IMG/VR virus record: IMGVR_UViG_3300025387_000009
From: a virus
Taxonomy: Duplodnaviria; Caudoviricetes
DNA: 64,000 nucleotides
Reading direction: 5' to 3' (one strand)
Shown: one piece after another, positions 48,345 to 64,000 of the stretch
How the letters are laid out: each line of letters starts with the position of its first letter
How positions within the stretch are numbered: position 1 is the stretch's first letter
Translations under genes and position numbers: made by a program
The notes under the pieces: generated by a model
Database searches by the model: none
What the model was told of the DNA's origin: nothing
Seen by the model: only the letters and a program-made list of their open reading frames with translations

Positions 48345-48836
48345 TTACCATTGCCTCGTAAAGTAAAGAGAAATAAAAAGATACTAATTCATCCTATAGG
48401 TTATCTCTATTAAAACCAAAGATAATTCAAAACACTTAGTGAGTAAACGCTGAAACTCCCTATGACACCAAAGCACACGAAAGGGAGAAGATTTAAAATT
48501 ATCCCCTGAGAACATATCCTTTTGTTGTTTTTCTGGCTTATTTAACATTTCTTCTAAAAAGGTTTAGATTCCTTTTAACTTACTTTAGGATATTTAGAGA
48601 AGAATCTTATATTTTATCATAAAAAAATCCTTATTACAATCAGTTTACAAAAAAATTTTGAAAAAAAATTCCTGTCAAGGAAAATTTCAAAATATTTTTA
48701 AGGTTGACAAGTAATTCGGAATACTTTGTCAAGCCTGTAATTCAGAATTTTTGTCCTTGACAAGTCTTCTGAATTATTTCTGAAGAATTCGCATGATGCG
48801 AAAAAATTCAGAATAAATTCTGAAACAATTCGTTTT

Positions 48837-48885
48837 GCCCAAATGGGTAAAATATTCCGAAACATTTTATTTTACCCATTTGGGC
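48837..48885. repeat. Perfect 18-bp inverted repeat (potential cruciform) containing a 37-bp element
   Basis: GCCCAAATGGGTAAAATA (48837-48854), a 13-nt spacer, then TATTTTACCCATTTGGGC (48868-48885). Confidence 0.9.
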
Positions 48886-48970
48886 AGGAATGGTGAAAAA
48901 ATATTATTTTACCCAATTCCCAAAACCTTCCCCTTTGGGGAAAAATTGGGAAACATATTATTTTACCCAA
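48843..48970 (+). promoter_or_regulatory. Three tandem copies of the 37-bp TTGGG-N27-CCCAA element
   Basis: Copies at 48843-48879, 48880-48916 and 48934-48970; the third has its left arm offset by 1 nt. Confidence 0.8.
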
Positions 48971-48993
48971 CTAAAAAAAGTTGGAAATAGGTG

Positions 48994-49022
48994 TTGACAT
49001 GAAAAAGGTTTTCTGATTTACT
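48994..49022 (+). promoter_or_regulatory. sigma70-like promoter at the start of the early-type region
   Basis: TTGACA at 48994, a TTTACT-like -10 near 49017, and ATG at 49032. Confidence 0.55.
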
Positions 49023-49031
49023 TTCTTGTCT

Positions 49032-49220
49032 ATGGCAAAACACCACTCACCATTATTTGACCTCTTGATTCAGGAGGCAGAGACTAAAGGAATCAGGGTT
49101 GTCCAGAGGGGCAACCGCTTCATGCTCTATCCTAAAGATAAGAGCAAGCCCATGCACACCTTTCACAGGGGAGCATTGGGAGAAAAACCATTGAGAAAAT
49201 GGCTTGACAAGAATAGCTGA
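49032..49220 (+). CDS. Small basic protein, possibly HicA/dsRBD-like fold
   Basis: Helix followed by GIRVVQRGNRFMLYP...MHTFHRG...LRKWL. The alpha-beta-beta-beta-alpha pattern is judged by eye only. Confidence 0.5.
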   Translation: MAKHHSPLFDLLIQEAETKGIRVVQRGNRFMLYPKDKSKPMHTFHRGALGEKPLRKWLDKNS

Positions 49221-49241
49221 AACTGATCCAATCCAATTCCT

Positions 49242-49415
49242 ATGAAAGAAAACCGCACCAGTTACTGCACCAAGACCTCGACTGAAAAGAAGGGGTATGA
49301 GATGGTTCAATATATCACGCTTGTCAAGTCTACCTTTGACGGGTGGACTAGGACATCGGAAAAAGAAATTAAAATTGATCTTGACACTCTTTGGGATCTT
49401 CTGGTAAACAGGTAA
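49242..49415 (+). CDS. Small hypothetical protein (57 aa), absent from the ORF track
   Basis: MKENRTSYCTKTSTEKKGYEMVQYITLVKSTFDGWTRTSEKEIKIDLDTLWDLLVNR. Confidence 0.6.
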   Translation: MKENRTSYCTKTSTEKKGYEMVQYITLVKSTFDGWTRTSEKEIKIDLDTLWDLLVNR

Positions 49416-49420
49416 GCCTT

Positions 49421-49732
49421 ATGACCACACCAACACCGAGAGAAGTAAAAGTAGTAGACCTACCCGATCTAGTCCCTGCTGAATGGGATTGGTTTTGGGA
49501 TATGCTAGGGAGTGCAGAACCAGATTTTTCCTATGGGGATAATAATCTGACTCTGATTTCTGGCGAGAGATTCGCTCGTTTTATTGACGATGCCTATGAG
49601 TGGTTCTCCTCTGGTATCAATGAGGAGGGAGAGGAAGCACCCCTTACTTGTTCAGAGGATGAGTGGAAAGCATTTGGGGATATGCTTTGGGATCTGAACA
49701 AGGAGCAAATCTATATCAATTTGGAGGCATAA
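49421..49732 (+). CDS. Acidic hypothetical protein
   Basis: Start moved to the ATG at 49421. Confidence 0.65.
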   Translation: MTTPTPREVKVVDLPDLVPAEWDWFWDMLGSAEPDFSYGDNNLTLISGERFARFIDDAYEWFSSGINEEGEEAPLTCSEDEWKAFGDMLWDLNKEQIYINLEA

Positions 49733-49736
49733 GAAT

Positions 49737-49967
49737 ATGAAGAAAACATACAAAGTCGAAGTCACTCGCACCACCTATGATTCCATGTCTTTTGATGTGG
49801 AAGCAAACAACGAAGAGGAGGCATACGATAATGCCATTGAAATCGCTATGGAGGCATTGTGGGGAAGTGGCAATGCTGAATACGAGGTTGAAACCTTGGA
49901 AGAAGTAGAGGAAGATACAGGGTGGGAAGAGAGAAACGAAAGACAAGCATACATCAACAACAACTAA
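49737..49967 (+). CDS. Acidic hypothetical protein of a common phage early-gene type
   Basis: KTYKVEV......FDVEANNEEEA...A pattern. Confidence 0.65.
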   Translation: MKKTYKVEVTRTTYDSMSFDVEANNEEEAYDNAIEIAMEALWGSGNAEYEVETLEEVEEDTGWEERNERQAYINNN

Positions 49968-49971
49968 TACT

Positions 49972-50151
49972 ATGAACTATCTAATGGACTATTACATTTC
50001 TTGGGATAAGAAGATCATCCCTATTCGTTCCTTGAACGTCATCATGTTCGATGAGGACTCTGATGGGGATAAGGTTGTCGTTTTCAAAAACGATAAGAAG
50101 CAACTCTGCGAAGCAAAAGTTCGTCATAGTGATGGGAAGAGAGTTTTTTAA
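49972..50151 (+). CDS. Small hypothetical protein (59 aa), absent from the ORF track
   Basis: MNYLMDYYISWDKKIIPIRSLNVIMFDEDSDGDKVVVFKNDKKQLCEAKVRHSDGKRVF. Confidence 0.6.
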   Translation: MNYLMDYYISWDKKIIPIRSLNVIMFDEDSDGDKVVVFKNDKKQLCEAKVRHSDGKRVF

Positions 50152-50190
50152 TTCCTTATTGACAAACAAATCAACCTTTGCTATTCTTAA

Positions 50191-50364
50191 ATGATGATCT
50201 GGAAAGCTAAAAACGTAATGAAGTCTGAAGCCATCTGGAAGAAGATGGATAAGGAATACAAGTATGATATGCTTGACCTTACAGACAAGGACAGAGAGTT
50301 TATCGCCCAATCTCGCCAAAAGAGGCTAGAGAGAAGGGCTAAAAAGAAGGAGGTGAATCAGTAA
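50191..50364 (+). CDS. Small basic protein (57 aa), absent from the ORF track
   Basis: MMIWKAKNVMKSEAIWKKMDKEYKYDMLDLTDKDREFIAQSRQKRLERRAKKKEVNQ. Confidence 0.6.
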   Translation: MMIWKAKNVMKSEAIWKKMDKEYKYDMLDLTDKDREFIAQSRQKRLERRAKKKEVNQ

Positions 50365-50365
50365 A

Positions 50366-50575
50366 GTGACAAACAACAAGATCGTAGTTAAAGACTTCTC
50401 CTATATGGGAGATCAGTTCACGACTCTTCCAACTAGTGTTAAGAAGGAGATCCTTATGGAGGAGATCAATACTTCTCGATACCATATCCTTGGTGCAGTC
50501 AATCAGTTCGACAAGTTCAAGCTGAAGTGTCGTTACCATAACAAGAGGAATAAGAAGGGTCTCTGGATTCGCTAG
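50366..50575 (+). CDS. Hypothetical protein
   Basis: GTG start 1 nt after the upstream stop. Confidence 0.55.
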   Translation: MTNNKIVVKDFSYMGDQFTTLPTSVKKEILMEEINTSRYHILGAVNQFDKFKLKCRYHNKRNKKGLWIR

Positions 50576-50599
50576 GAGGCGATTCTAATTCACAGAATT

Positions 50600-50637
50600 T
50601 CCCAATAGGGTGAAATACCCCTATTGGGATTTTTTTT
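50600..50637 (+). terminator. Rho-independent terminator
   Basis: CCCAATAGGG/CCCTATTGGG stem followed by a T-tract. Confidence 0.85.
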
Positions 50638-50686
50638 ATATAAAACGAAAAATATGAAATTTATGAATTTTTCAAAATCTTCGCCC

Positions 50687-50723
50687 TTGGGCGAAATTGT
50701 TTGAAAGATTTCATTTTACCCAT
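50687..50723 (+). promoter_or_regulatory. 37-bp element copy
   Basis: TTGGG-cgaaattgtttgaaagatttcatttta-CCCAT. Confidence 0.8.
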
Positions 50724-50885
50724 TCTTTATATAAAAAATAAAAAAAAACCTTGACAAAGTATTTTACCCCTATGTGTCAAGATAAAAATAATCCTTGACA
50801 CTTGGCATATGGGTCTGGTGTCAAGCACAAAGATTTTTGAAATTGTTCTTGAATGTTTGGGGAAAGATTGTATGGTAGCTCAACT

Positions 50886-52865
50886 ATGAAACTACTAGAC
50901 ACACCAAATCAAATCGAACAGATCGGAAACATCACGGGCACTTCGTCCTTCAAGATGAAGTCCTCTCGTAAAGCCTTCCAGATCCTCTCTGACCTTTACT
51001 CTGACAAGCCTCTTGCCATCGTCAGAGAGCTTGGTTGCAACGCCAATGATTCTATGGTTGCCTCTGGCAAGGTAGGTCAACCTTTCCACATTCACCTTCC
51101 CAACTCTCTTGAGCCTTGGATCACCATTCAGGATTTCGGAACAGGTATCTCGCACCAGAATATCTACGACATCTACTCCACTTACTTTGAAAGCACCAAG
51201 ACCAATACCAATGAGCAGATCGGTTGCCTTGGTCTAGGTAGCAAGTCTCCCTTCTGTTATACGGACAACTTCTCTGTCACCTCCATCCATGATGGTGTCA
51301 AGAGAATCTACAATGCCTACTTCGCTCAAGATGGCAACCCGACTATTGCCCTGATGAGTCAGGAGAACACCAAGGAAGAAAATGGTGTGGCAGTCCAGAT
51401 CCCTGTCAAGGAGAAAGATTTCTGTGACTTCATCAAGGCAGTCCAGAAGGCATTTCGATTCTTCGATGTCAAGCCAACTACCTCTGGTGGGGTGTGCCAT
51501 TGGTCAGAGGAGAAGCCTACCTTCTCTGGTGAGGATTGGATGTTCATGGATTCCTCTAATCAATGGGAGGCATTTGCCATCATGGGAGGAGTCACCTATC
51601 CTATCGACCACTACAAGGTTGCCGACAAGTATAACAACATCGTTCGCAAAGGTGTGGTTCTGAAGTTCGCTATGGGAGAACTCGACTTTGCTCCCTCTCG
51701 TGAACACCTGTCCTATGATGATGCCACTATCAAGGCAATCAATGACAAGCTGGAAAAAGTCTTGACAGAGATCAAGACCAAGGCAAAAGAGCAGATAGAA
51801 AATAAGGATAACATCCTTGACTCCATCCATGCTTTGCTCTCCTACACCGAGAGGTTCTCCTACTACGGGTCAAGCAATTTTGAACTCAAGAATGTCCAGT
51901 TCAAAGGTAAGGACATCACCGAGCCTTACAAGGTTGTCAAGGATATTCTCAAGACATCTGTGCAGTCCTTCACTCGCTACTCTTACAGGAAGCAGGTCAG
52001 CACCAGTTCATCCTTCTCCTTCGACAAGAAGTTCACATGGTATTACGATGATGGATGCAAGAATCCTATCGCTCGTGTCAAGACTCTTGTTCGTGAGACT
52101 AATGACACTTATGCCATCCTCTTCACTCAAGAGCAGAGGGATGACATGATGGATGCAGGATTCCCTGATAACTTCCTCCCTGCCTCCTCCCTGCCTTCCC
52201 CTACTGCCAAGAGGAAGCTCTCTGGTGGCACTATCGTAGTCAAGGCTAAAGAGGACATCACCTGCTATCAGATTGGTCACCCCTACAATGTCTCTTGGGA
52301 GTCAAGGACAATCGAACCGACTGAAACAAATCTTCCCAAGTATTATATCCTGAAGGGGAAGAATTGGGAGTTGAATGTCAAGCTCAATCATCTTCGCATC
52401 ATCAGCGACAAGGATCGCCTTCGCTCCTATTGTCAAGCCTTTAATATCTCGCTCAATGATATTGTGCTTGCCAATGACAAGGAGGCAAAGAAGCTCAAGG
52501 CAAGGGGTGTCAAGGATTTTGTTGAGGAGTTCAACAAGAATCACGACCTATCTTGGGTTGACATGAGTGAAGTGGACATCCTCCAATCCTACTCGACTCA
52601 CAGGTTGCATGACATCGTGAATCGTCAAGAGTTTTCTGATCTCGCCAACGACAATCCTATCAAGGAGATGCTTGTCAAGCTCCAAAGTTTCAAGCAGAAG
52701 TATAGCAAGATCACCGAAATCCTTGGCTACATGGATAACAGGGACAGCAATAAAGTTTTCAAGATGGAAGATAAAGTTCTTGACTTCCTCCTCTCCTCTC
52801 TGCTAGGAGAGTGGGGTGAGGATCAGAAGATGTATCTGCTCCTTGCAAAGAAACTGGAAAAATAG
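50886..52865 (+). CDS. rIIA: rIIA-like protein with an N-terminal GHKL/HATPase domain
   Basis: LYSDKPLAIVRELGCNANDS, IQDFGTGI and GCLGLGSKSPFCY motifs, immediately upstream of rIIB. Start moved to the ATG at 50886. Confidence 0.9.
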   Translation: MKLLDTPNQIEQIGNITGTSSFKMKSSRKAFQILSDLYSDKPLAIVRELGCNANDSMVASGKVGQPFHIHLPNSLEPWITIQDFGTGISHQNIYDIYSTYFESTKTNTNEQIGCLGLGSKSPFCYTDNFSVTSIHDGVKRIYNAYFAQDGNPTIALMSQENTKEENGVAVQIPVKEKDFCDFIKAVQKAFRFFDVKPTTSGGVCHWSEEKPTFSGEDWMFMDSSNQWEAFAIMGGVTYPIDHYKVADKYNNIVRKGVVLKFAMGELDFAPSREHLSYDDATIKAINDKLEKVLTEIKTKAKEQIENKDNILDSIHALLSYTERFSYYGSSNFELKNVQFKGKDITEPYKVVKDILKTSVQSFTRYSYRKQVSTSSSFSFDKKFTWYYDDGCKNPIARVKTLVRETNDTYAILFTQEQRDDMMDAGFPDNFLPASSLPSPTAKRKLSGGTIVVKAKEDITCYQIGHPYNVSWESRTIEPTETNLPKYYILKGKNWELNVKLNHLRIISDKDRLRSYCQAFNISLNDIVLANDKEAKKLKARGVKDFVEEFNKNHDLSWVDMSEVDILQSYSTHRLHDIVNRQEFSDLANDNPIKEMLVKLQSFKQKYSKITEILGYMDNRDSNKVFKMEDKVLDFLLSSLLGEWGEDQKMYLLLAKKLEK

Positions 52866-52867
52866 TA

Positions 52868-52896
52868 TTGACAACACAACCCAAACAAAGTAGTAT
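52868..52896 (+). promoter_or_regulatory. sigma70-like promoter for rIIB
   Basis: TTGACA (52868)-17-TAGTAT (52891). The ATG lies 7 nt downstream. Confidence 0.75.
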
Positions 52897-52903
52897 CGTA
52901 ATC

Positions 52904-53998
52904 ATGAACAACACCAACAATGCAGTCACCATTACAGGACAGGGAAAGATCACTGCCTGTATCAACGGATCAATCTACACGATTGACAACACGCACCCCA
53001 ACTACTTCAAGGCACTTGAGGCAGTCAAGGCACAGGATTGGAACGCCTTCCTCGACCATGTAGACATTTCTCGTAAGGTCAAGGATTTTGTTCTCAACTC
53101 TGATGTCCAGATTGTAGATGGCATCATCGTCTACAAGGGTGAGCCTATCCACAATACTCTCACCAAGAGGGTGATTAGTTTCATGCAACAGGACTTGCCC
53201 TTCAAGCCTCTGCTGAACTTCCTCTATAACCTGATGGAGAATCCCTCCTATCGTGCAGTCAATGAACTCTACGATTTTCTGGATGTGGGTGAACTCCCAA
53301 TCACAGAGGATGGTCACTTCCTCGCCTTCAAGAATGTTCGTGCAGACTATAAGGACATTCATAGTGGGACATTTGACAACTCCATTGGCAAGGTGTGTGA
53401 GATGCCTCGCTACAAGGTGGACGAGGACAAGGATCGCACTTGCTCAAGTGGATTGCACTTCTGCTCGATTAACTATCTGCCTCACTTTGCAGATCACAAC
53501 GGAGGTCACACCATGATTGTCAAGATCAATCCCAAGGATGTGGTGTCAATCCCTGCTGACTACAACAACACCAAGGGTCGTTGCTGTAAGTATGAAGTGA
53601 TCGGTGAATACACCGAGGATTGGAGGATCAAGCTCAATCGTGGAGAGAATGGATTCGACAACGATCTCTACTCTTCTGATGGAGGAGATTACGAGGACGA
53701 GGATGAGAACGAGTATTGTGCCAACTGCCAAACCATCCTTGATAATTGGGATGAGAACTCCGAGATGCTCTGTAACTCCTGCTACGATGACAAATACTCT
53801 GGATGCTACGGAGGAGGATGTGCTGGCAAGACTACACTCACCAACGAGGATCAGGTAGGCAACGATGGCAACGATGGTTGCTGTGGTGGTCAATGCGGTT
53901 GTGAGAACAACAACCAGTATGGTGTCAAGCCTAATGGTCATCTCTTCCACAATGTCAGAGATGCCCTTGGTAAGTTTGTCAAGAAGAATGTAGGCTAG
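52904..53998 (+). CDS. rIIB: rIIB-like protein with an acidic, Cys-rich C-terminal extension
   Basis: NPSYRAVNELYDFL, LPITEDGHFLAFK, CSSGLH and KINPKDVVSIPADYNNTKGRCCKYEV motifs. Confidence 0.9.
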   Translation: MNNTNNAVTITGQGKITACINGSIYTIDNTHPNYFKALEAVKAQDWNAFLDHVDISRKVKDFVLNSDVQIVDGIIVYKGEPIHNTLTKRVISFMQQDLPFKPLLNFLYNLMENPSYRAVNELYDFLDVGELPITEDGHFLAFKNVRADYKDIHSGTFDNSIGKVCEMPRYKVDEDKDRTCSSGLHFCSINYLPHFADHNGGHTMIVKINPKDVVSIPADYNNTKGRCCKYEVIGEYTEDWRIKLNRGENGFDNDLYSSDGGDYEDEDENEYCANCQTILDNWDENSEMLCNSCYDDKYSGCYGGGCAGKTTLTNEDQVGNDGNDGCCGGQCGCENNNQYGVKPNGHLFHNVRDALGKFVKKNVG

Positions 53999-54006
53999 GA
54001 CGAGGT

Positions 54007-54045
54007 GGGGAGGAGGGTGTGTTGCCTACTAGCACCCTCCTCCCC
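54007..54045. other. 13-bp perfect hairpin lacking a U-tract (processing or stabilising stem)
   Basis: GGGGAGGAGGGTG/CACCCTCCTCCCC followed by AAA. Confidence 0.7.
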
Positions 54046-54089
54046 AAATGGCAACCGAAAAAAGATTTCATTTTACCCAAACTAAAAAT

Positions 54090-54371
54090 ATGATTGACGA
54101 AGATGGCGAGATGCTAATGACAAAGGAAGATGCAATCCTAGAGATGCTCGACCAAGCAGTAGAGGTTAAAGCATATAGAATTGATGACCTTGGAAACAAA
54201 GAGGGAGAGCTTGAGGTTCTTGAATGGGACAGCACAGCAACAAGTGAGCAGGGAATCCCAGATATCGTTATCGAAGGAAACTGCTTCACTATCTTCCACG
54301 ATGAATTGCAAGATGCTAGCATCTCTGGTAATACCTTCACCATTGGTGACAAGCTTTTTGAGGTAATCTAA
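54090..54371 (+). CDS. Acidic hypothetical protein
   Basis: Start moved to the ATG at 54090; the longer ORF runs through the intergenic motif. Confidence 0.6.
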   Translation: MIDEDGEMLMTKEDAILEMLDQAVEVKAYRIDDLGNKEGELEVLEWDSTATSEQGIPDIVIEGNCFTIFHDELQDASISGNTFTIGDKLFEVI

Positions 54372-54562
54372 TGGACTACTACAATCTACATCTTCCCAAG
54401 GGTAATCACTGGAACGACGAGTATGATACTTGGATTGAATCTTCTTATAACAAGGGTCATGCCATTGACAAGTTCCATGACGATGACAGGTATGGCATCA
54501 CTGCCAATAACCTTGATGACATTCCTATCGTAATCGGAGGGGAGGATATTTATATAGATTAA
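54371..54562 (+). CDS. Acidic hypothetical protein
   Basis: TAATG coupling to the upstream gene. Confidence 0.6.
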   Translation: MDYYNLHLPKGNHWNDEYDTWIESSYNKGHAIDKFHDDDRYGITANNLDDIPIVIGGEDIYID

Positions 54563-54574
54563 GATTTTAAATAA

Positions 54575-54649
54575 GGACTCGAAGCTCAATGGTCGAGCGG
54601 CATGCTCATAACGTGAAGGAAGTAGGTTCGATCCCTACCGGGTCCACCA
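54575..54649 (+). tRNA. tRNA with CAT anticodon (elongator Met or Ile2), encoded CCA
   Basis: Acceptor GGACTCG/CGGGTCC, D stem GCTC/GAGC, anticodon loop CTCATAA, T arm GTAGG-TTCGATC-CCTAC. The G1-C72 pair argues against an initiator tRNA. Confidence 0.9.
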
Positions 54650-54658
54650 AATATCTAC

Positions 54659-54733
54659 GCATCGTTCATTCAACGGATAGGATCGGGAACTTCTAATTCC
54701 TCAATGCAGGTTCGATTCCTGCACGATGCACCA
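54659..54733 (+). tRNA. trnR: tRNA-Arg(TCT), encoded CCA
   Basis: Acceptor GCATCGT/ACGATGC, anticodon arm GGGAA-CTTCTAA-TTCCT, T arm GCAGG-TTCGATT-CCTGC. Confidence 0.92.
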
Positions 54734-54738
54734 ATTTT

Positions 54739-54812
54739 GGGAGTGAAGCATTAAAGTGATGCAATAAACTTTTAATTTATTGAAGAGGGAGCGTTACCCT
54801 CCACTCCTACCA
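54739..54812 (+). tRNA. trnK: tRNA-Lys(TTT), atypical, encoded CCA
   Basis: Acceptor GGGAGTG/CACTCCT, D stem GCAT/ATGC, anticodon arm ATAAA-CTTTTAA-TTTAT, T arm GAGGG-AGCGTTA-CCCTC with a non-canonical loop. Confidence 0.75.
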
Positions 54813-55047
54813 GTTTCAAATTACCATGATCGAACTCCCAATGATGATTAGGACAAAGCAAAACAAGATTATCAATATGATTGATTGTATTAAGTCTTAC
54901 ATTATCTTCAAAATCAGCAATCGGGATTTTATGAGCAACTTCTACATGAGCATCATAACCACAAACTGCACAGACTTTAGGAGCATCTTTCATAACCACA
55001 CAACGAGAGTGCCATCTTATGTAAGCGTATGCTGTTTCACTTTTCAA
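54772..55047 (-). pseudogene. HNH endonuclease, probably an N-terminally truncated relic
   Basis: CAVCG...HVEVAH...NLVLLCPNHHWEFD. There is only a TTG start, with an in-frame TAA 9 codons upstream. The 3' end overlaps tRNA-Lys on the opposite strand. Confidence 0.7.
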
Positions 55048-55057
55048 AAACTTCGCC

Positions 55058-55094
55058 TTGGGCGAAATCCTTTAAAAGATATTCTTTTACCCAA
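55058..55094 (+). promoter_or_regulatory. 37-bp element copy
   Basis: TTGGG-cgaaatcctttaaaagatattctttta-CCCAA. Confidence 0.8.
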
Positions 55095-55117
55095 ATAAAA
55101 AAAGTTGAAAATAGTTC

Positions 55118-55145
55118 TTGCATCTTTCTGGGGATAGTGTATAGT
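55118..55145 (+). promoter_or_regulatory. sigma70-like promoter driving the candidate ncRNA
   Basis: TTGCAT (55118)-16-TATAGT (55140) with an extended TG. Confidence 0.65.
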
Positions 55146-55151
55146 CATTCC

Positions 55152-55375
55152 ATAGTTGAAATGCTACTGGTGAACGGACTAGCTATCCGTAGTCGCCACA
55201 GGTCTCAAGTCCTGATCGTGTTGGTAACCCCAGCACAAATGCAGAGAGCAACTACAGAAAAACAAGCAGTGCTGTGCAGACTTATGGGGGCGGTTGCAAC
55301 CCACGCCATAAGATGCCGAGTCGGAGGTATTGAAAAATATCACGGCGAAGTCCTTGACGAAGGATCAGCACCTAG
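55152..55375 (+). ncRNA. Candidate ~220-nt multi-stem structured RNA
   Basis: At least six stems, one with a GAAA tetraloop, downstream of a promoter and with no credible ORF. Confidence 0.6.
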
Positions 55376-55398
55376 TTTTTAATACCAACCACACCACC

Positions 55399-55812: not shown

Positions 55813-55817
55813 TCCCT

Positions 55818-56390: not shown

Positions 56391-56515
56391 AAACCACATC
56401 ATTCTCAATCGTCATCAAAGACATCAAGATTCGCAAGCACTTCGCACCTGCTACCAAGAAGATCAATTCAAAAAAGATCTACAAGAGAAACAAAGTTGTT
56501 GACACCAGAGACTAG
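56387..56515 (+). CDS. Small basic protein (42 aa), absent from the ORF track
   Basis: MKTTSFSIVIKDIKIRKHFAPATKKINSKKIYKRNKVVDTRD. ATGA overlap with the upstream gene. Confidence 0.6.
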   Translation: MKTTSFSIVIKDIKIRKHFAPATKKINSKKIYKRNKVVDTRD

Positions 56516-56536
56516 TTCTGCCATACTTCTAATCCT

Positions 56537-56704
56537 ATGAAAGACCCAATTACCCTTTTGCTTCGTTTCTTTGGAAAGGAAGTAAATCCCAAAACCTCCC
56601 TGTTGTATAAACACATCATGGAGACAACACACAGCAATTGGCACACACGCCTATTCAACAACAACCAAATCGGAAAATACGAATACAACCTGTACAACAA
56701 ATGA
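56537..56704 (+). CDS. Small hypothetical protein (55 aa), absent from the ORF track
   Basis: MKDPITLLLRFFGKEVNPK..., preceded by a TTGACA...CATACT promoter-like pair. Confidence 0.55.
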   Translation: MKDPITLLLRFFGKEVNPKTSLLYKHIMETTHSNWHTRLFNNNQIGKYEYNLYNK

Positions 56705-57291
56705 AATCAGTTCTACCAATTCAAATCGAAACACCAACTCTCAACGAGAGAACGTTCCATATTGGAGGGTGTGTCCAAGGAGCAAAACCAGTGGCAGGAA
56801 TCTTCTGCTACAGTTTTGAGCATTGGGATTTTGCAAGATCTTTAAACAAGAAAGCACTTGAAACTTTCAAGAGTCTTGTCAATGAGATTCTTGAGATTAA
56901 ACTGGATCAACTTATGGATGATTCGGAGATCTGGCAGATTGAAGGAAATTGGATGGGAATGCTTCATGACTCATACCACATTCTGGTTGTCAAGAATCTT
57001 CAGAAGGCAATCAATACCGACAAGTGGCATATGGAAAGTGATATGTTCATGGAGGATGCACTCTACCAGATGCTTGAAGAATCCTTTGCTCTTGCTGGTG
57101 ACAATGAAGGATATGGTGACCATCGTAAGAAGTGGGCATCGGTTTTCAAGTCCCTTGGTTGGAAAGATGAGAACGAACTCTTCGCAAACGGAACCCCAGA
57201 AGATCTTTATTGGGATCTTGACTTTGAGATGCTCAAGCCAAGCAAGAAGGCAATAAAGGATTACTGTGACTTTCTTCGCAAAGCATATTAA
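56701..57291 (+). CDS. Hypothetical protein
   Basis: Start moved to the ATG at 56701 (ATGA overlap). Confidence 0.65.
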   Translation: MKSVLPIQIETPTLNERTFHIGGCVQGAKPVAGIFCYSFEHWDFARSLNKKALETFKSLVNEILEIKLDQLMDDSEIWQIEGNWMGMLHDSYHILVVKNLQKAINTDKWHMESDMFMEDALYQMLEESFALAGDNEGYGDHRKKWASVFKSLGWKDENELFANGTPEDLYWDLDFEMLKPSKKAIKDYCDFLRKAY

Positions 57292-57329
57292 TACTTGACA
57301 AAAAGTTAAAACCTGTTAAGATATAAAGA

Positions 57330-57426
57330 TTGGTGGTATCTATTGAGAGTAGTGGCTCAATAGAGTTCATAGGGAAGCCCTTCCTCCTCCTAGTGGTTTG
57401 GGGGGAGGAAGGCAACCCGACACCAG
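57330..57426 (+). ncRNA. Candidate three-way-junction RNA or structured leader
   Basis: Starts at the predicted TSS of TTGACA(57295)-16-TAAGAT(57317). P1 TGGTG/CACCA, P2 CTATTGAG/CTCAATAG and a 12-13-bp P3. Confidence 0.55.
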
Positions 57427-57442
57427 ACAAAAACAAAACTAT

Positions 57443-57628
57443 ATGAAGCACATCCCAACCCTCCAAGTCCTCTTCTTCCAAGAACATAATCTGTATGGTT
57501 ATGAATATGATGACGAAACAGGCTTGACACAGACTGAATACGGACATCTCACCCTTGATGCCTGTCTTGGTTCTGCCTTCAAACATCTCAAGACTTTCCT
57601 TGTCTTGCCAGATGTTGAAACTCGTTAA
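57443..57628 (+). CDS. Hypothetical protein
   Basis: Start moved to the ATG at 57443. Confidence 0.6.
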   Translation: MKHIPTLQVLFFQEHNLYGYEYDDETGLTQTEYGHLTLDACLGSAFKHLKTFLVLPDVETR

Positions 57629-57674
57629 AAATAATCATTGACATTCTAAATCCTTTCTGCAAGGATCGCACCCT

Positions 57675-57887
57675 ATGACAACCACAAGACCCACCATCCA
57701 AATCTCCACGACTATGTTCTGGAGTGTCTACAACACCCTTCTCAATACCGAGAGGGCATTAGCCGAACTAGAGGACGAGAACCTCTATCCCAACCAGATC
57801 GAAGCACACAAAGATGTTTGCACTGCTCTGGGTCGTTTGGAAACAATCGTGTCAACTCTAAAGGACATTGATTATAATGCAAACTGA
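57675..57887 (+). CDS. Hypothetical helical protein
   Basis: 70-aa ORF downstream of a TTGACA box. Confidence 0.6.
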   Translation: MTTTRPTIQISTTMFWSVYNTLLNTERALAELEDENLYPNQIEAHKDVCTALGRLETIVSTLKDIDYNAN

Positions 57888-58140
57888 AACCATACAGAAG
57901 AAACCCAGAAAGCCCAAGAAGGTTTCCAGAGACTCGACGCACTTCCTGATTCATGTATATGGTGACAAGGAAATGCTTCAGCATCTTTATTCCGTAGGGG
58001 ATGTTCCCAAGGATAAGAAGAAAGCACTTGACTTGATGAAGGATCTCTATACAACGGATCTGATGCACAGCAAGTATTATTTCTATGAACTGGTGGAGCA
58101 ATCCTTCAAGACAATCGACACCTTGCCCAACAACAAATGA
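57877..58140 (+). CDS. Hypothetical protein
   Basis: Start moved to the ATG at 57877. Confidence 0.6.
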   Translation: MQTETIQKKPRKPKKVSRDSTHFLIHVYGDKEMLQHLYSVGDVPKDKKKALDLMKDLYTTDLMHSKYYFYELVEQSFKTIDTLPNNK

Positions 58141-58412
58141 CAACATTCACAGGCGAACAGAGAAGCGAAGGATACGAAAATACCAAATGGCAGAATATCT
58201 ATATCTCGCCTTCAGTAAATCCATCCAAGAAAGAAGATTGGTATCAGGTAATTGATACCAGAAAGAGTTGGAGAAACAATGACCAGTGGACTCGCATCAT
58301 TAAGAGAGAAGGAGTTAGAATTAGCTTCGCAAAGAAAAGCCAGATGAGTTCATTTGATCGTGAAGTGGAAATCTATATCAATCATCATTATCCCCTGCCA
58401 CAAAATGATTAA
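58137..58412 (+). CDS. Hypothetical protein
   Basis: ATGA overlap with the upstream gene. Confidence 0.6.
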   Translation: MTTFTGEQRSEGYENTKWQNIYISPSVNPSKKEDWYQVIDTRKSWRNNDQWTRIIKREGVRISFAKKSQMSSFDREVEIYINHHYPLPQND

Positions 58413-58518
58413 CACGATTCTTACGATTCTGCTTGCAATCGTGCTAGCATATCTGTTACCTTTCAACATCATCCTTGCCCTTTTGCTTGTGGTGATCATC
58501 ATTCAGTTAAACAAATAA
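58405..58518 (+). CDS. Very hydrophobic 37-aa membrane peptide, absent from the ORF track
   Basis: MINTILTILLAIVLAYLLPFNIILALLLVVIIIQLNK. Confidence 0.6.
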   Translation: MINTILTILLAIVLAYLLPFNIILALLLVVIIIQLNK

Positions 58519-58539
58519 ACAACCAACCAAACCAAACAC

Positions 58540-59175
58540 ATGCCCAACCATTGCACCAACCTACTGATCTGCACTAGCGGAAAGACCATCGGAGAACTTG
58601 TCAAGCCCTATATCTCCGAGAGAACCGATAGACAAGGAGTGGAGAGATTCCTTGACTTCAATAAGATTGTCCCAATGCCTCCCTGCATTGAAGAGTCTTC
58701 TAAGTTTGGAGACATCGACTACATTACCTCAAAGAGGACTCCAGAAGAGGAAGCCATTGAGAAACAAAAACAGGATGAAAATAAACAAACCTGTGTAGAC
58801 GAGACAGGTTTTAGCGGATGGTATGAGTGGTGTAAAGCCAAGTGGGATACCAAGTGGAATTCCTACAGCAACCTTACTCTGGAGGATTCTTCCAATGAGA
58901 TTGAGGATCTGAGCAGCTACTGCTTCCAGACTGCATGGTGTCCCCCAACCAATGTCATTCGTGAACTCGCTAAGATTACCGGAGAGACCATTGAGATGTA
59001 TTACTACGACGAAGGACACATGTTCTTTGGATGCACCACGTTCTCTAAGGATAGTGAGAACGACGAATGCTACGAAGCAGAAGAAGCGGCGGACATCGAC
59101 CCAGAAAGTGATATCTACAAGTATTGCGATCTTGACTATTACTTTGAGATGCATGAAGATGATGATGAAGAGTAA
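58540..59175 (+). CDS. DUF1281/YubB-like ferredoxin-fold protein
   Basis: MPNHC.N.L...LDFNKIVPMP...WYEW...WDTKWN...FQTAWCPP...YYDEG..F.G. Confidence 0.8.
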   Translation: MPNHCTNLLICTSGKTIGELVKPYISERTDRQGVERFLDFNKIVPMPPCIEESSKFGDIDYITSKRTPEEEAIEKQKQDENKQTCVDETGFSGWYEWCKAKWDTKWNSYSNLTLEDSSNEIEDLSSYCFQTAWCPPTNVIRELAKITGETIEMYYYDEGHMFFGCTTFSKDSENDECYEAEEAADIDPESDIYKYCDLDYYFEMHEDDDEE

Positions 59176-59180
59176 TCATC

Positions 59181-59378
59181 ATGACAGAGAATCAGTACAA
59201 AGATCTCACTAGGAAGGCAATGATAAGGGAGTATCTACTCTTAAGACAGAATACGATCTCCCTTATCGATGCCACCAATGAACTCTACGGCTTTATAGAA
59301 GAGAACTTCCAAGAAGACGATGAGTTTAAAGAAAAACTTGACAACTACGATCAACTAGTAGAGAGTATAAATCTGTAA
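59181..59378 (+). CDS. Hypothetical helical protein
   Basis: 65-aa ORF. Confidence 0.6.
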   Translation: MTENQYKDLTRKAMIREYLLLRQNTISLIDATNELYGFIEENFQEDDEFKEKLDNYDQLVESINL

Positions 59379-59437
59379 CCGTGTTTTTATACAACACCGT
59401 GTTAAAATACAACACCGTGTTTTATTACCACGCAAGT
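59377..59437. repeat. 18-bp-periodic ATACAACACCGTGT element, copy C (three units)
   Basis: CCGTGT at 59379, 59397 and 59415, followed by TATTACCACGCAAGT. Confidence 0.85.
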
Positions 59438-59481
59438 ACGCACACAACACCCGTAACCCACACACGCTCGTATACCCGCAT

Positions 59482-59682
59482 ATGAAGATTAAAACCAGTA
59501 TAGTAATTAACTCAGAAGATGCTGACTACATCATCGAAGTCTCAGAGGATTGTTCAGACTACACGACAATCAAGGAAAGACTTGATGATGAGACAGAGAA
59601 GATCGTTCTGACTATCCCAAATAAGCAGATAGAAGAATTCTCTCAGGCAATCCAAGAACACATCAGAATCCACGGACTATGA
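59482..59682 (+). CDS. Acidic hypothetical protein
   Basis: 66-aa ORF. Confidence 0.6.
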   Translation: MKIKTSIVINSEDADYIIEVSEDCSDYTTIKERLDDETEKIVLTIPNKQIEEFSQAIQEHIRIHGL

Positions 59683-59894
59683 AAATAGCACACGACCCAG
59701 ATCCCAGAAACATAGGTTACTGTAAGGGGGGTTTATCCACGGATATGATGAAGGAGTTTCAAACAACCCCTACGACGGAGGAAGCTTTAATTACGACGAA
59801 CTCTATAGACACCTTCAATACAAGATTGGATATGATGCAGGAGTCGCTGAATACTGTACAGATTTCCATCCAGAAGAACAGTCTTCGTAAGTAA
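59679..59894 (+). CDS. Hypothetical protein
   Basis: ATGA overlap with the upstream gene. Confidence 0.5.
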   Translation: MKIAHDPDPRNIGYCKGGLSTDMMKEFQTTPTTEEALITTNSIDTFNTRLDMMQESLNTVQISIQKNSLRK

Positions 59895-59957
59895 TTGTAA
59901 GATAATAACTTGTAGGATAAATGAATATAATGTGTTCATTTATCTTACAACGCAGTC

Positions 59958-59994
59958 TTGGGTGGATATAGAAGAAACATTTTATTTTACCCAA
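59958..59994 (+). promoter_or_regulatory. 37-bp element copy
   Basis: TTGGG-tggatatagaagaaacattttatttta-CCCAA. Confidence 0.8.
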
Positions 59995-60104
59995 ACTAAT
60001 ATATGGATGTTATATTAGTTAAAAAACATATACGAAAAAAAATTAATATAACTTAATTCTTTTTTCTTGATTAGTTGCTAGGGATTTGATCTACTGGTTG
60101 TCCT

Positions 60105-60359
60105 ATGAGCAAAGTACCACACAACACCGACGAGGGTTTCGCCCTCACCACCCCAGCCCAGATCGACACCTTCCGTCTGGCTACCATCAAGATGGGATTG
60201 AAGGCACTCCAACACGGCATGGTCATCACCAGAGGAGCCAATGCCAAGTACCTCCTCTCCTGCCTCTCCCAGTATACTGGCAAGAAGTATTCCCCTCGCA
60301 AAGATGTCCAGCAGGGAATCGCTGACATCGAAGAGATCATGAGGAAGGTCACCTCCTAA
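60105..60359 (+). CDS. Hypothetical protein
   Basis: 84-aa ORF with early-region codon usage, followed by a terminator. Confidence 0.65.
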   Translation: MSKVPHNTDEGFALTTPAQIDTFRLATIKMGLKALQHGMVITRGANAKYLLSCLSQYTGKKYSPRKDVQQGIADIEEIMRKVTS

Positions 60360-60372
60360 AAATCCCCCAATC

Positions 60373-60406
60373 AAAAATCCCCTTGCAAGTCAAGGGGATT
60401 TTTTTT
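60373..60406 (+). terminator. Rho-independent terminator, possibly bidirectional
   Basis: ATCCCCTTG/CAAGGGGAT stem flanked by A- and T-tracts. Confidence 0.85.
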
Positions 60407-60417
60407 GTATTCATACC

Positions 60418-60513
60418 TTGGGGAGAATTATTTGAAAGAAATTATTTTACCCAAGGTTCCAATGCCTTGGGCGTATGCTCCAAAAAGTTTGGGTAAAATG
60501 AAATCTTTTTTCC
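60418..60513. promoter_or_regulatory. 37-bp element copy (60418-60454) plus an inverted half-element (60486-60512)
   Basis: TTGGG-gagaattatttgaaagaaattatttta-CCCAA. The inverted half is identical over 27 bp to 54057-54083. Confidence 0.8.
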
Positions 60514-60683
60514 TTCAGACTTTTTTGATTTTGTCAATAGGGAAAAATAAAAATCACCTACCCCTAAAAATAGCAGTTGACCAATGAGGAGGAATATGAT
60601 CTACTTGATCCATAGTCAAAAACGGCTATGACCTCTAAACCGAAGGTGCAAATCGGAAAGGGCGGAAATCCCTTATTGATAGT

Positions 60684-61145
60684 ATGAACATCGAAATCAT
60701 CAAGCAAATCGTCAAGAGCCGCAAGGGGTCGAACCTCTCGGCTGTTATCACCAAGACCCTCAAGACCAAAAAGCCCCATGCTGGCAACAAGATCGAGAAG
60801 ATCACCAAGCTGGTCATTCGTGGTGGCGTTGAATACGACAACATGGGAGTTGTCAAGGAAGGTCGTGAGGAAGGAACTCTCCCTTCCGAAAACGCTGGTC
60901 TGCCTTGGGGTGAGTGGTCAGAGTATCCCCTTCACATTACCCACAAGGGAGCAGATTACGCTCGGTTCTACCCTGCTTCTGGTATCAAGTTCACCCCTCA
61001 TGTTGAGTATTTCCTCAACGGAGTGAGCGTTGACAAGAGCGTGATTGAGCCTCTGGTTCTCGCCTCTGAACTCCCCAAGCCCAAGGAGGAAGAGCCTTTG
61101 TGCTTTACAATCAAAGCGGAGAATGTAAAGGATATCATCCTCTAA
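60684..61145 (+). CDS. Hypothetical phage protein
   Basis: 153-aa ORF, GVEYDNM...LPWGEW...ITHKG..Y.RFYP. Confidence 0.7.
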   Translation: MNIEIIKQIVKSRKGSNLSAVITKTLKTKKPHAGNKIEKITKLVIRGGVEYDNMGVVKEGREEGTLPSENAGLPWGEWSEYPLHITHKGADYARFYPASGIKFTPHVEYFLNGVSVDKSVIEPLVLASELPKPKEEEPLCFTIKAENVKDIIL

Positions 61146-61158
61146 TTTCCCCCCAACC

Positions 61159-61193
61159 GAAGAGAGGGAGTCACCCCCCGACTCCCTCTCTTC
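61159..61193. other. 14-bp perfect hairpin lacking a U-tract
   Basis: GAAGAGAGGGAGTC/GACTCCCTCTCTTC. Confidence 0.7.
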
Positions 61194-61247
61194 AACCTTC
61201 AAAAAAAAAACAAAACACCGATAAAACATATCATTCTACCCAACATC

Positions 61248-61511
61248 ATGAAAGACCGCATCCACTCCACGCTCATCGTCGCACTCCTCATCACCCTTCT
61301 TTGTGCCATTGATTGCCTCGCCACTAGCCTCTACTGGCAACATCAAGCAATCGTGCATCATGCCGCTTTCTTTGAAGCATCATCTTGGGGGAATGTCTCC
61401 TTCCATTGGGAGGACGATTCCTATGCCCATGCTCCCTTCCAAGACTTCACCTACTACCAGAACAAGGTGCAGGAAGCCTTCAACAAGACAATCCCTACTG
61501 ATTCAAAGTAA
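61248..61511 (+). CDS. Membrane-anchored or secreted hypothetical protein
   Basis: N-terminal hydrophobic segment. Confidence 0.6.
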   Translation: MKDRIHSTLIVALLITLLCAIDCLATSLYWQHQAIVHHAAFFEASSWGNVSFHWEDDSYAHAPFQDFTYYQNKVQEAFNKTIPTDSK

Positions 61512-61591
61512 TGGAAGATTCTCGCCTCAATGACCTGATTGCCTTGCGTGACCAAATCGCTCGTGACTTACAGGATGTTAAAACCAGATAG
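61511..61591 (+). CDS. 26-aa peptide, absent from the ORF track
   Basis: MEDSRLNDLIALRDQIARDLQDVKTR. TAATG coupling to the upstream gene. Confidence 0.45.
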   Translation: MEDSRLNDLIALRDQIARDLQDVKTR

Positions 61592-61621
61592 AATTTATTC
61601 TCACCGCCGACAACAGAAACA

Positions 61622-61837
61622 ATGACAACTCTGACTCCTAGATCAGTCATCGAAAATCTCCTCAATGGCAATCTCACGAAAGCCACAACCGATGCAACAT
61701 ATTATTCTACCCAAACTCACCTTGATGAGGCAATGGGCATGGGATACAACTACAACGATGCCTTGATCATGGGAGCCTATCTCACGGGTCAAATCTGCTT
61801 CCAAGACTACGCCGACAACTTCAACAACAGAAAATGA
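61622..61837 (+). CDS. Hypothetical protein
   Basis: 71-aa ORF. Confidence 0.6.
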   Translation: MTTLTPRSVIENLLNGNLTKATTDATYYSTQTHLDEAMGMGYNYNDALIMGAYLTGQICFQDYADNFNNRK

Positions 61838-62031
61838 ATATCTTCCTCATGCGTAAATACACGACAAGGATCAATCTCTTCCTTGCCTTTGCATTCTTTT
61901 TGACTCTCGCATCCTGCTACACAACCTATCTCAACAAGCTGAAGAAAGATCCAACGCTTCCTTGGCAAGCAATGTTCCTTCAGATCCAGCCTCAACCATC
62001 TTGGCAGAGAGCCACCCCATTCAATAGTTAA
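61834..62031 (+). CDS. Small membrane protein
   Basis: Hydrophobic segment INLFLAFAFFLTLASC. ATGA overlap with the upstream gene. Confidence 0.55.
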   Translation: MNIFLMRKYTTRINLFLAFAFFLTLASCYTTYLNKLKKDPTLPWQAMFLQIQPQPSWQRATPFNS

Positions 62032-62049
62032 TTGCCATAGAAAAAACCA

Positions 62050-62088
62050 TCCCCCTGATCTTGTGGTGAGGTCAGGGGGATTTTTCTT
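62050..62088 (+). terminator. Rho-independent terminator
   Basis: TCCCCCTGAT/GTCAGGGGGA stem followed by TTTTTCTTT. Confidence 0.8.
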
Positions 62089-62096
62089 TCCCCACC

Positions 62097-62133
62097 TTGG
62101 GTAGAGAATACTGAATCATTTTATTTTACCCAA
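62097..62133 (+). promoter_or_regulatory. 37-bp element copy
   Basis: TTGGG-tagagaatactgaatcattttatttta-CCCAA. Confidence 0.8.
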
Positions 62134-62226
62134 GGTTTTTTCCTATACGAATTTTCTTGATCTATAGATTATTTTCTATAGAGTTTTCTCCAGAAGGCAC
62201 AACCTCCTTCTCGCAGTATCACCACT

Positions 62227-62604
62227 ATGGCAACTCGTCTCTACGTCAACGCTCCCTCCAATGTCATCGAACGCCTCATTGGTGTTCCCATTGGAACTAC
62301 CGAAATCCTCAACCAGTTTGAGGAGCGCACCAAGTCGTATGACTCCTACGACCAGTATCAGCTTCGCCAGCTGGAGCCTAACCTCGCCAAACTCCATGAC
62401 TTCCAAGTCTTTGGATACGGTCGCCTCACTGGTGCGGCTATGAACTCCATCCGTGCCTTTGCTCCCAAGGACGCTGGCGAGGATTTCCTGTGGTGCGGCT
62501 CCACTAGCGATCAGTCCGCTATCGGTAACATTCTGGAAGATCAGCTAGGCAACCTCGTCCACGACGATATCGTTGCCCAGATTGATTCCCTCTCTTGGAG
62601 TTAA
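62227..62604 (+). CDS. Hypothetical protein
   Basis: 125-aa GC-rich ORF in its own promoter-terminator unit. Confidence 0.7.
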   Translation: MATRLYVNAPSNVIERLIGVPIGTTEILNQFEERTKSYDSYDQYQLRQLEPNLAKLHDFQVFGYGRLTGAAMNSIRAFAPKDAGEDFLWCGSTSDQSAIGNILEDQLGNLVHDDIVAQIDSLSWS

Positions 62605-62619
62605 TCCATCTAGAAATTC

Positions 62620-62650
62620 CCCTGTCCTTAATTGGGCAGGGGTTTTTCTT
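62620..62650 (+). terminator. Rho-independent terminator
   Basis: CCCCTGTCC/GGGCAGGGG stem followed by TTTTTCTT. Confidence 0.8.
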
Positions 62651-62661
62651 TGCCTTCGTAC

Positions 62662-62754
62662 TAGGGTAAAAGTTTCTGAATCTTTTTATTTTACCCAAAT
62701 CTCCCACCCTTCCAAAATCCCTTGCGCTTCGCCGCAAATACATTTGGGTAAAAT
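62662..62754. promoter_or_regulatory. 37-bp element copy (62662-62698) plus an inverted half-element (62744-62753)
   Basis: TAGGG-taaaagtttctgaatctttttatttta-CCCAA, then TTGGGTAAAA. Confidence 0.8.
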
Positions 62755-63948: not shown

Positions 63949-64000
63949 GCCTGATGCGTAACAATACGCTTGACATTTCCACCAGACCCTACTGGGAAAA

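Follow-up and report, generated by a model that had tools for sequence, protein, structure and literature searches.

Early regions of T4-type phage genomes are known to carry promoter-early stem-loop (PeSL) cassettes (Arbiol et al. 2010, PMC2839356; Comeau et al. 2014, PMC4122927), which as described comprise a stem-loop, an AT-rich region, -35 and -10 hexamers, a Shine-Dalgarno (SD) sequence and an ATG, with no separate sequence-specific box. Another class of repeated intergenic site, the stoperators and operators of Cluster A mycobacteriophages (the L5 gp71 system; Mavrich & Hatfull 2019, PMC6550527), is asymmetric, oriented with transcription and different between lineages, and diverges together with its repressor. 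Here we describe a 37-bp inverted-repeat element that recurs between the early genes of an uncultured T4-like phage, found in a stretch of 64,000 nucleotides (hereafter the window) that is part of a 121.6-kb IMG/VR viral contig (G000; record IMGVR_UViG_3300025387_000009; estimated 54% complete). The closest kinds of system are PeSL cassettes, in architecture and shuffling, and stoperators, in their oriented, lineage-divergent sites; the element is a full member of neither. We propose, at about even odds (a probability of roughly 0.5), that it serves as an operator-like site for a phage-specific DNA-binding factor within PeSL-like terminator/promoter cassettes, a proposal built on sequence comparison.

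Like PeSL cassettes, the units that contain the element are short, composite and intergenic, lie in hyperplastic early regions of T4-like genomes, and place a stem-loop terminator, an AT-rich stretch and a putative sigma70-like promoter ahead of small open reading frames (ORFs). They differ in that a distinct 37-bp inverted-repeat box stands between a canonical terminator and a tract resembling an upstream promoter (UP) element, where it is the most conserved part of the unit, and in that this box is found in a single GC-rich island and varies from one close lineage to the next. In phage KVP40, a 48-kb segment (40-88 kb) showed no comparable repeated 10-mer. The likeness to stoperators lies in many short asymmetric intergenic sites, mostly oriented with transcription, some at promoters and others not, whose motifs drift at few positions between related phages. 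Stoperators, in contrast, belong to temperate siphoviruses of Actinobacteria and are 13-bp single sites spread genome-wide with a known cognate immunity repressor, whereas the present element occurs in a lytic-type T4-like myovirus, in one island, and often as paired inverted or tandem repeats with fixed geometry. A genome-wide distribution is not seen here, and the candidate proteins tested do not track the box as a co-diverging repressor would (the contig being 54% complete). The earlier note on this DNA, made from the letters alone, had listed among its candidate roles a recombination site that makes each promoter-gene(s)-terminator unit an exchangeable cassette; the link to the published PeSL units is drawn here.

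MotA boxes of T4 middle promoters are likewise phage-specific boxes near sigma70-dependent prereplicative promoters, and share a loose likeness of core (CTT). A MotA box, however, lies at -30 and replaces the -35, whereas the present box leaves the -35-like hexamer intact and ends 11-34 nt before it, and neither MotA (PF09158, C-terminal domain) nor AsiA (PF09010) was matched in the five records searched, including G000 and the complete 211,587-bp genome of a relative, G001. TF1 sites of Bacillus phage SPO1 and IHF-type upstream sites are about 35-37 bp long, lie at early promoters, bind a dimeric bending protein and have one conserved and one degenerate half. The element resembles them in length, in its position at early promoters and in having one half well conserved and the other degenerate; it differs in that a search of the window's contig for the HU/IHF family (PF00216) returned no gene, no such search having been made in the relatives, complete genome included, and in that the box departs from the IHF consensus. 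Compared by eye, the box also fits none of the consensus sequences of Fis, sigma54, the cyanobacterial Pho box or NtcA.

The repeat family comprises nine full 37-bp copies and seven right-half copies, 14 of the 16 lying on the + strand, which is the direction of the island genes. With right ends in register, the nine full-length copies yield the consensus TTGGG-N3-Aa-N3-t-N2-gAAa-N-AT-N-TTATTTTACCCAa, in which arm positions are invariant (GGG, TTTTACCCA), spacer positions are variable, and information content falls to zero directly after CCCAA. Within the window the right arm is invariant and the left arm has decayed to 5-11 bp; half copies hold the right 21 bp only and have no partner arm. 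The window contains 12 instances of ATTTTACCCA, where 0.46 would be expected, and 0 of 100 shuffles reach that count. Across the 121.6-kb contig, a position weight matrix (PWM) of the full element matches just the nine copies, and one built on the right 21 bp detects 16 sites, every one of them within 48822-64017 (15.3 kb), with no copy in the remaining ~106 kb; five shuffled genomes gave 0-2 such sites each. Although 80% of this stretch is coding, 14 of the sites fall between genes (binomial P = 1.6e-8).

Much of this had been anticipated. The earlier note had listed eight 37-bp copies, an offset copy at 48934, inverted halves at 60489 and 62744, and a 27-bp identity between the halves at 54057-54083 and 60486-60512 (-); all are present in the geometry it described, and the identity is 27 of 27. 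It had seen no copy in the first 47 kb and had suggested a scan of the whole genome with a PWM; on the contig the full motif occurs in the island alone and is not equally frequent elsewhere. Its statement that other copies are intergenic holds for 14 of 16 sites (and for 54060 too if that ORF begins at ATG 54090); 61694 lies inside ORF 61622-61837. Sites at 48822 (weak), 61223, 61694 (TTCTACCCAA variants) and 63997 are additional to its list. Terminators were said to precede the copies at 50687, 60418, 62097 and 62662, and this is confirmed: GC-rich terminator-like hairpins with T runs at 50600, 60373, 62049, 62619 and 63910 lie 9-57 nt before five copies, the fifth being 63997. The element itself was rejected as a terminator, as no T run follows it on either strand.

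The genome that carries the element is that of a T4-type myovirus, the kind of host in which PeSL cassettes occur, as indicated by homologues of gp23, rIIA and rIIB. The T4-type major capsid family of gp23 (PF07068, E = 1e-92) is present in G000 and in the relatives G001 and G002, long fibre genes occupy 1-26 kb of the window, and rIIA (50853-52865) and rIIB (52868-53998) are only ~35-40% identical to those of the nearest cultured relatives. G+C content in the window rises from ~0.30-0.38 before ~48 kb to 0.41-0.50 after (the 48-50 kb bin being 0.37), and the rIIA/rIIB early island (48000-64100 in the window; 38.5-56 kb in G001) is accordingly a GC island, at 0.41-0.50 versus ~0.30 elsewhere. 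The complete relative shows the same regional restriction of its own box as the window's contig does (16 of 16 sites in one island), with 27 of 33 box matches at 38.5-56 kb around rIIA/rIIB, in a segment of GC 0.41-0.455 versus ~0.30 elsewhere. Because the window phage and the complete relative both have this GC island, it is a feature conserved in the clade, as opposed to one imported recently.

Loci of relatives were retrieved through rIIB from IMG/VR and metagenomes, and fall into six lineages of the same uncultured T4-like clade, designated by box type: A (the window and L140), B (L001), C (L007), D (G001 and L006), E (L003) and F (L146). In L140, a metagenomic contig whose rIIB is 85% identical, the same element occupies orthologous places, namely the non-coding hub at the head of the island, upstream of rIIA, after rIIB and after the tRNAs. 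Its elements have perfect 11-bp inverted arms with a 15-bp spacer (TTGGGTAAAAT-N15-ATTTTACCCAA), an arrangement that represents the ancestral form, and between orthologous copies of the window and L140 the arms are kept while the spacers drift. The arm TTTTACCCA is absent from every fetched relative locus but L140, and a scan of IMG/VR for ATNTTATTTTACCCAA returned only single chance matches among the 80 contigs listed (of at least 119).

Each lineage instead has its own highly repeated intergenic box, located after a hairpin or terminator and before an A/T tract with a TTGnnn hexamer, such that the layout of terminator, box, A/T tract and -35-like hexamer is common to all six. Aligned on their core, the boxes read TTTTAC-CCAA (A), TCTTAC-GCAA (B; box TCTTACGCAA), TATTAC-AC (C), TC(A/T)TAT-TTTCTTGT (D), TCTTCT-AAA (E) and TCTTAC-TACC (F), that is, a shared core T[C/T/A]TTAC followed by a lineage-specific tail (CCAA, GCAA, AC, TACC, AAA or TTTCTTGT). 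The lineage B locus, L001, is syntenic with 39.6-63.9 kb of the window at protein identities of 35-100%; at its hub, the promoter and UP-like region can be aligned with those of the window and the box directly upstream is of the other type, as are all L001 boxes compared at orthologous sites. The box has therefore changed in parallel at the sites compared. Paired arrangements recur elsewhere, as inverted arms of 11-14 bp in lineage B and as adjacent inverted boxes in lineage D, tandem triplets at 25-54-bp spacing occur in several lineages, and tandem copy number at the hub is three in the window versus four in L140. The suggestion that a two-fold site of fixed geometry suits a dimeric or multimeric binder is strengthened by the perfect 11-bp arms of L140 and by the presence of each lineage's own box at the same positions.

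The distance from the end of the box to the -35-like hexamer clusters around a preferred value within lineages. In the window it is 23 nt at three sites (48970 to TTGACA at 48994, 55094 to TTGCAT at 55118, and 62133 to TTGATC at 62157), 27 nt from 50723 to 50751, and 34 nt from 64017 to 64052; TTGACA-like hexamers preceded by A tracts thus follow five window copies, as consensus matches. An exact 23-nt gap, which had been claimed for the first three, describes those sites well and does not hold as a rule, given the other window values and the gaps of 13, 24 and 34 nt in L140. Gaps are 19-20 nt seven to eight times and 29-30 nt twice in lineage B, 22 and 32 nt in lineage C (a second 22 being read by eye), mostly 26-28 nt with a few at 35-38 nt in lineage D, 24 and 34 nt in lineage E, and 11-13 nt in lineage F. 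Most departures from a lineage's modal spacing amount to about one helical turn, as would be expected if a box-bound factor must face RNA polymerase. At the hub promoter, for instance, the difference between 23 nt (window) and 34 nt (L140) is due to an 11-bp insertion between box and A tract.

Boxes also coincide with points of gene exchange. The lineage D loci L006 and G001 are ~94% identical over the region compared and are separated by four larger indels, two of which read box-cassette-box in one genome and single box in the other; flanking alignments overlap exactly across the box, and the junction lies inside the box in both. Such indels between close relatives, through recombination between copies, follow the pattern described for PeSL cassettes in RB49/phi1, T4/PST and KVP40/nt-1 (PMC2839356, PMC4122927). 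Between the window and L140, however, only one of five breakpoints abuts an element. Taken together, two of four indels in one comparison and one of five breakpoints in the other make the element one of several conserved regulatory segments where exchange occurs and not a dedicated recombination site. The idea that it allows cassettes to be exchanged is supported as a consequence of the repeats, with no sign of a dedicated recombinase: no integrase domain was found among the ~40 ORFs scanned, although no whole-genome recombinase search was made, and a 64-aa ORF gave one weak match to a 62-aa PHROG annotated as 'integrase'. As regards integron-like attC sites, inverted repeats do lie at cassette borders here, but the cassettes carry their own promoters and terminators. 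A mobile element of the miniature inverted-repeat transposable element (MITE) or repetitive extragenic palindrome (REP) kind was rejected, as flanking target duplications are lacking and copies occupy orthologous intergenic positions in L140 and L001. An extra box-bounded cassette of G001 relative to L006 (L009 coordinates 16140-16420) contains a ~300-nt GC-rich stretch that looks structured and includes tRNA-Arg(CCG).

In the explanation that we favour, a composite early cassette consisting of an intrinsic terminator, the 37-bp element, an A/T-rich UP-like tract and sigma70-type -35/-10 hexamers would punctuate the GC-rich rIIA/rIIB island. Its unit would be an asymmetric box of 11-21 bp, GAAAnATnTnATTTTACCCAA, to which the full element would add a second, often decayed, inverted copy 15 bp away. 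A sequence-specific factor, phage-made or phage-carried, would occupy the inverted pair as a dimer and half sites as single units. From a position ~55-70 bp ahead of the transcription start and always on the same helical face, it would influence host RNA polymerase at island promoters, whether by class-I-like activation or by early shut-off through blocking of UP-element contact, and at sites that lack a promoter it may act as a roadblock. The same 20-40 bp, being directly repeated, also provide the homology through which recombination inserts or deletes promoter-gene-terminator cassettes. With MotA and AsiA undetectable, the clade would presumably need some other control after the immediate-early phase. 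Among the roles offered in the earlier note, that of a regulatory box of an early regulon is the best supported, through the tight spacing between box and -35 hexamer and the steps of about a helical turn; binding by a protein, the direction of regulation and the place where the factor is encoded are what we infer beyond these patterns.

Several observations weigh against this explanation. A number of boxes have no promoter downstream and stand 4-25 nt before a start codon or tRNA gene: no sigma70-like promoter precedes the next gene after 54060 (9 nt before ATG 54090) or 61223 (4 nt before ATG 61248), or separates the box from tRNA-Arg in lineages F, D and E (6, 15 and 25 nt, respectively). 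A pure upstream-activator model leaves such boxes unexplained. Uniform spacing within a lineage could in part stem from common descent of paralogous duplicated cassettes and not from selection, the 27-nt gap of one window copy breaks the phase, and the preferred spacing differs between lineages. Promoter calls are consensus matches, many with poor -10 hexamers, and a generic promoter scan returned 34 promoter-like sites versus 30 expected from shuffles. Lastly, the searches made tied no DNA-binding protein to the box. Pfam and PHROGs searches of ~40 ORFs of the island and its flanks found no DNA-binding domain, and the earlier remark that no cognate protein is evident stands. Two conserved candidates do not follow the box: a basic 69-aa island protein is ~88% identical (by eye, from the alignment) in lineages D, E and F, whose boxes differ, and a helix-turn-helix (HTH) metallophosphoesterase has an identical HTH in lineages D and E despite their differing boxes.

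The 69-aa protein is one of four island proteins found in all lineages, the others being rIIA, rIIB and a 60-aa protein that was set aside as reader of the box for being acidic. It has few homologues, no Atlas lead and no PDB sequence match, and Foldseek returned nothing at E <= 0.001 for its structural model (pLDDT 70), with weak winged-helix rows appearing only at E > 1. Its gene (50366-50575) lies directly upstream of rIIA, and the protein is present in all six lineages; no known family was matched, and an HN-x-R-x3-G motif near the C terminus is invariant, reading RFHNxRDxKGRF in four lineages. The HTH-metallophosphoesterase (368-393 aa) has an HTH_23-like motif at its N terminus, joined to a calcineurin-like metallophosphoesterase, and is present in G000, G001 and G002; in G000 it is encoded at window-equivalent 75833-76939 (368 aa), 12 kb to the right of the island. 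A search for sigma70 region 2 returned a single ORF of ~250 aa resembling a gp55-type late sigma factor, and a T7-like RNA polymerase was not found, the positive control of that search being equally silent. Between G001 and G002, nucleotide identity is 72-95% over megablast blocks of 1 kb or longer that total ~35 kb, and at so high an overall divergence the comparison cannot single out unusually divergent proteins. Given these failed searches, the factor, if it exists, would be encoded elsewhere, evolve too fast for such comparisons, or be delivered with the virion.

Other explanations account for parts of the same evidence. Boxes that stand straight before genes or tRNAs without an intervening sigma70-like promoter (54060 and 61223; lineages F, D and E) would be accommodated if the box were itself a promoter element, or lay at or close to a start site, used by host RNA polymerase that a phage factor redirects, as a middle-mode promoter in tandem with a sigma70-type early promoter and a substitute for MotA/AsiA. 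The orientation of 14 of 16 sites along transcription and the lack of detectable MotA and AsiA in the five records are in keeping with this idea. Related phages T7, T3 and SP6 have promoter specificities in which few positions vary around a conserved core, and the few-position variation around the box core is reminiscent of them. We nevertheless consider such a promoter unlikely: no consistent -10-like element is found at a fixed distance past the box, the distance to start codons and tRNAs varies from 4 to 25 nt, no T7-like polymerase turned up (with the silent control noted above) and the only extra sigma-like ORF looks gp55-type; nor would such a promoter account for the second, inverted arm or for the limited range of distances to the -35 hexamer. 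It also seems improbable that no trans-acting factor is involved at all, the element being a piece of PeSL-type cassettes homogenised by gene conversion and turnover, which provides homology for shuffling and owes its lineage specificity to concerted evolution. Gene conversion alone does not explain the spacing steps of about a helical turn, and conservation falls on particular positions, ending sharply on the 3' side and sparing the spacer, where tracts of uniform identity would be the mark of conversion; orthologous copies of the window and L140 keep their arms as spacers drift, and the core hexamer is conserved in all lineages with change concentrated in the 3-4-nt tail, a pattern that fits selection on recognition. 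What speaks for concerted evolution are the two of four box-bounded indels with junctions inside the box, the variable tandem number at the hub, two paralogous upstream regions of ~200 bp (60360-60560 and 62605-62800, which contain both - strand halves), and the published PeSL deletions and mini-circles in the phage pairs named above (PMC2839356, PMC4122927).

A hairpin in + strand RNA (or single-stranded DNA), acting as a processing, stability or read-through-control signal between cistrons, is quite unlikely in our view, even though all nine full copies fold into GGG/CCC-closed structures (five with z <= -2.0, three from -1.0 to -2.0 and one at -0.2). In these alignments 88.8% of pair cells are standard pairs with G-U allowed, and nine left-arm A-to-G changes retain G-U pairing versus one pair-breaking cell at those positions; the strand bias of the half copies would also suit an RNA. 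Compensatory change, however, does not exceed chance (296 of 500 shuffled sets match or surpass the observed values), pairs 6 and 11 are broken in five and seven of 13 copies, respectively, half copies have no partner arm whatsoever, and most copies lie between strong terminators and promoters, where they would be poorly transcribed. Moreover, the arms of lineage B vary without covariation and no Rfam family matches the element. Anchoring, injection-pausing or insulating sites without a direct promoter role had been suggested as well, and this we regard as very improbable. Clustering in a single 15-kb early island that begins at a large non-coding hub, with many copies directly after terminators, is what such a role would predict, yet we know of no stepwise injection in T4-type phages, and sites that are spread out, promoter-proximal and constrained in spacing point to promoters and not to a single stop signal. 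No specific support for an insulator or injection pause was found.

Beyond the operator-like site itself, the lineage comparison raises the idea of a private transcription code, in which a fast-evolving phage-encoded (possibly virion-injected) factor would read a box whose 3-4-nt tail changes with lineage. We put this forward tentatively and hold it to be possible, with the odds against it. If it were true, early control would be lineage-specific in a manner akin to immunity specificities, co-infecting relatives could distinguish self from non-self, and the sites would at the same time delimit exchangeable gene cassettes. As to how prereplicative timing is arranged in T4-like phages without MotA and AsiA, the DNA side of a candidate answer can be read from sequence, and the box offers a concrete bait for the regulator. 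Six specificities in otherwise syntenic phages offer a natural experiment on the co-evolution of site and reader, and the PeSL idea of regulatory cassettes as shuffling units now takes in environmental T4-like phages that are uncultured, the junctions being mapped to the box.

The individual copies, all on the + strand unless stated, are arranged as follows. At the non-coding hub, a weak degenerate right half (48822..48842; GAAACAATTCGTTTTGCCCAA; 17.8 bits) heads a tandem array of three full elements, of which the first (48843..48879) scores 46.3 bits and has perfect 11-bp arms (ATGGGTAAAAT/ATTTTACCCAT), the second (48880..48916), also found by PWM, abuts it, and the third (48934..48970) has its left arm offset by 1 nt and is the one preceding TTGACA 48994. 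The first gene past this array (49034-49220) resembles by eye a small nucleic-acid-binding toxin of the HicA type, its sole database match being a weak one to a 62-aa PHROG labelled 'integrase'. Upstream of rIIA, a full element (50687..50723) follows the terminator at 50600-50629 and precedes TTGACA 50751. Past the end of rIIB, a right half (54060..54080) occupies a position that is conserved in all lineages. It lies just beyond a strong GC hairpin without a T run (54008-54046) that follows the rIIB stop codon; this hairpin is kept in L140 and has equivalents in lineages D, E and F, and in every lineage a single box comes next.

Downstream of the tRNA cluster and an HNH remnant stands the full element at 55058..55094, which precedes TTGCAT 55118. 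A third tRNA, at 54739-54809, is called by Rfam (44 bits) and unreported by ARAGORN; relatives have tRNA-Lys at the corresponding place. In an ORF-free stretch past the 55118 promoter, 55155-55252 (within 55152-55375) gave a sub-threshold match to the type-P1 twister ribozyme (30.2 bits versus a gathering score of 67.2, E = 0.005), and the 3' part of the stretch is nearly identical in L140. The full element at 59958..59994, upstream of ORF 60105-60359, has no clear -35 hexamer at short spacing. Two full copies are paired with inverted right halves, such that each - strand half faces a full copy 34-45 bp upstream: 60418..60454, 9 nt past the terminator at 60373-60403, with 60489..60509 (-), the partner of the half at 54057-54083 in the 27-bp identity; and 62662..62698, past the terminator at 62619-62642, with 62744..62764 (-). 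Between these pairs lie two variant right halves recognised by the right-half PWM, 61223..61243 (ATTCTACCCAA) and 61694..61714, and the full element 62097..62133, which follows the terminator at 62049-62081 and precedes TTGATC 62157. The last island copy is a right half at 63997-64017 (63997..64000 within the window), located after the terminator at 63910-63941 and ahead of TTGACA 64052.

Two further features of this phage were noted. Palindromes of the form TTGACA-N18-TGTCAA (CTTGACA...TGTCAAG) are repeated at 50748-50830, upstream of rIIA, and at 48700-48765, at the hub, where they overlap -35 boxes; the rIIA pair is kept in L140, and they look like a second, separate operator-like system at core promoters. 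Finally, an N-terminal leader M-x-(K/R)-D-x-x-x-L-E-x-x-Y is common to unrelated proteins encoded at 36027 and 43113, and leaders of the same type are found beyond the window, at window-equivalent 65646, 66195, 67657, 68573, 79405 and 79980 (-); they resemble the capsid-targeting sequences (CTS) of the injected internal proteins of T4.

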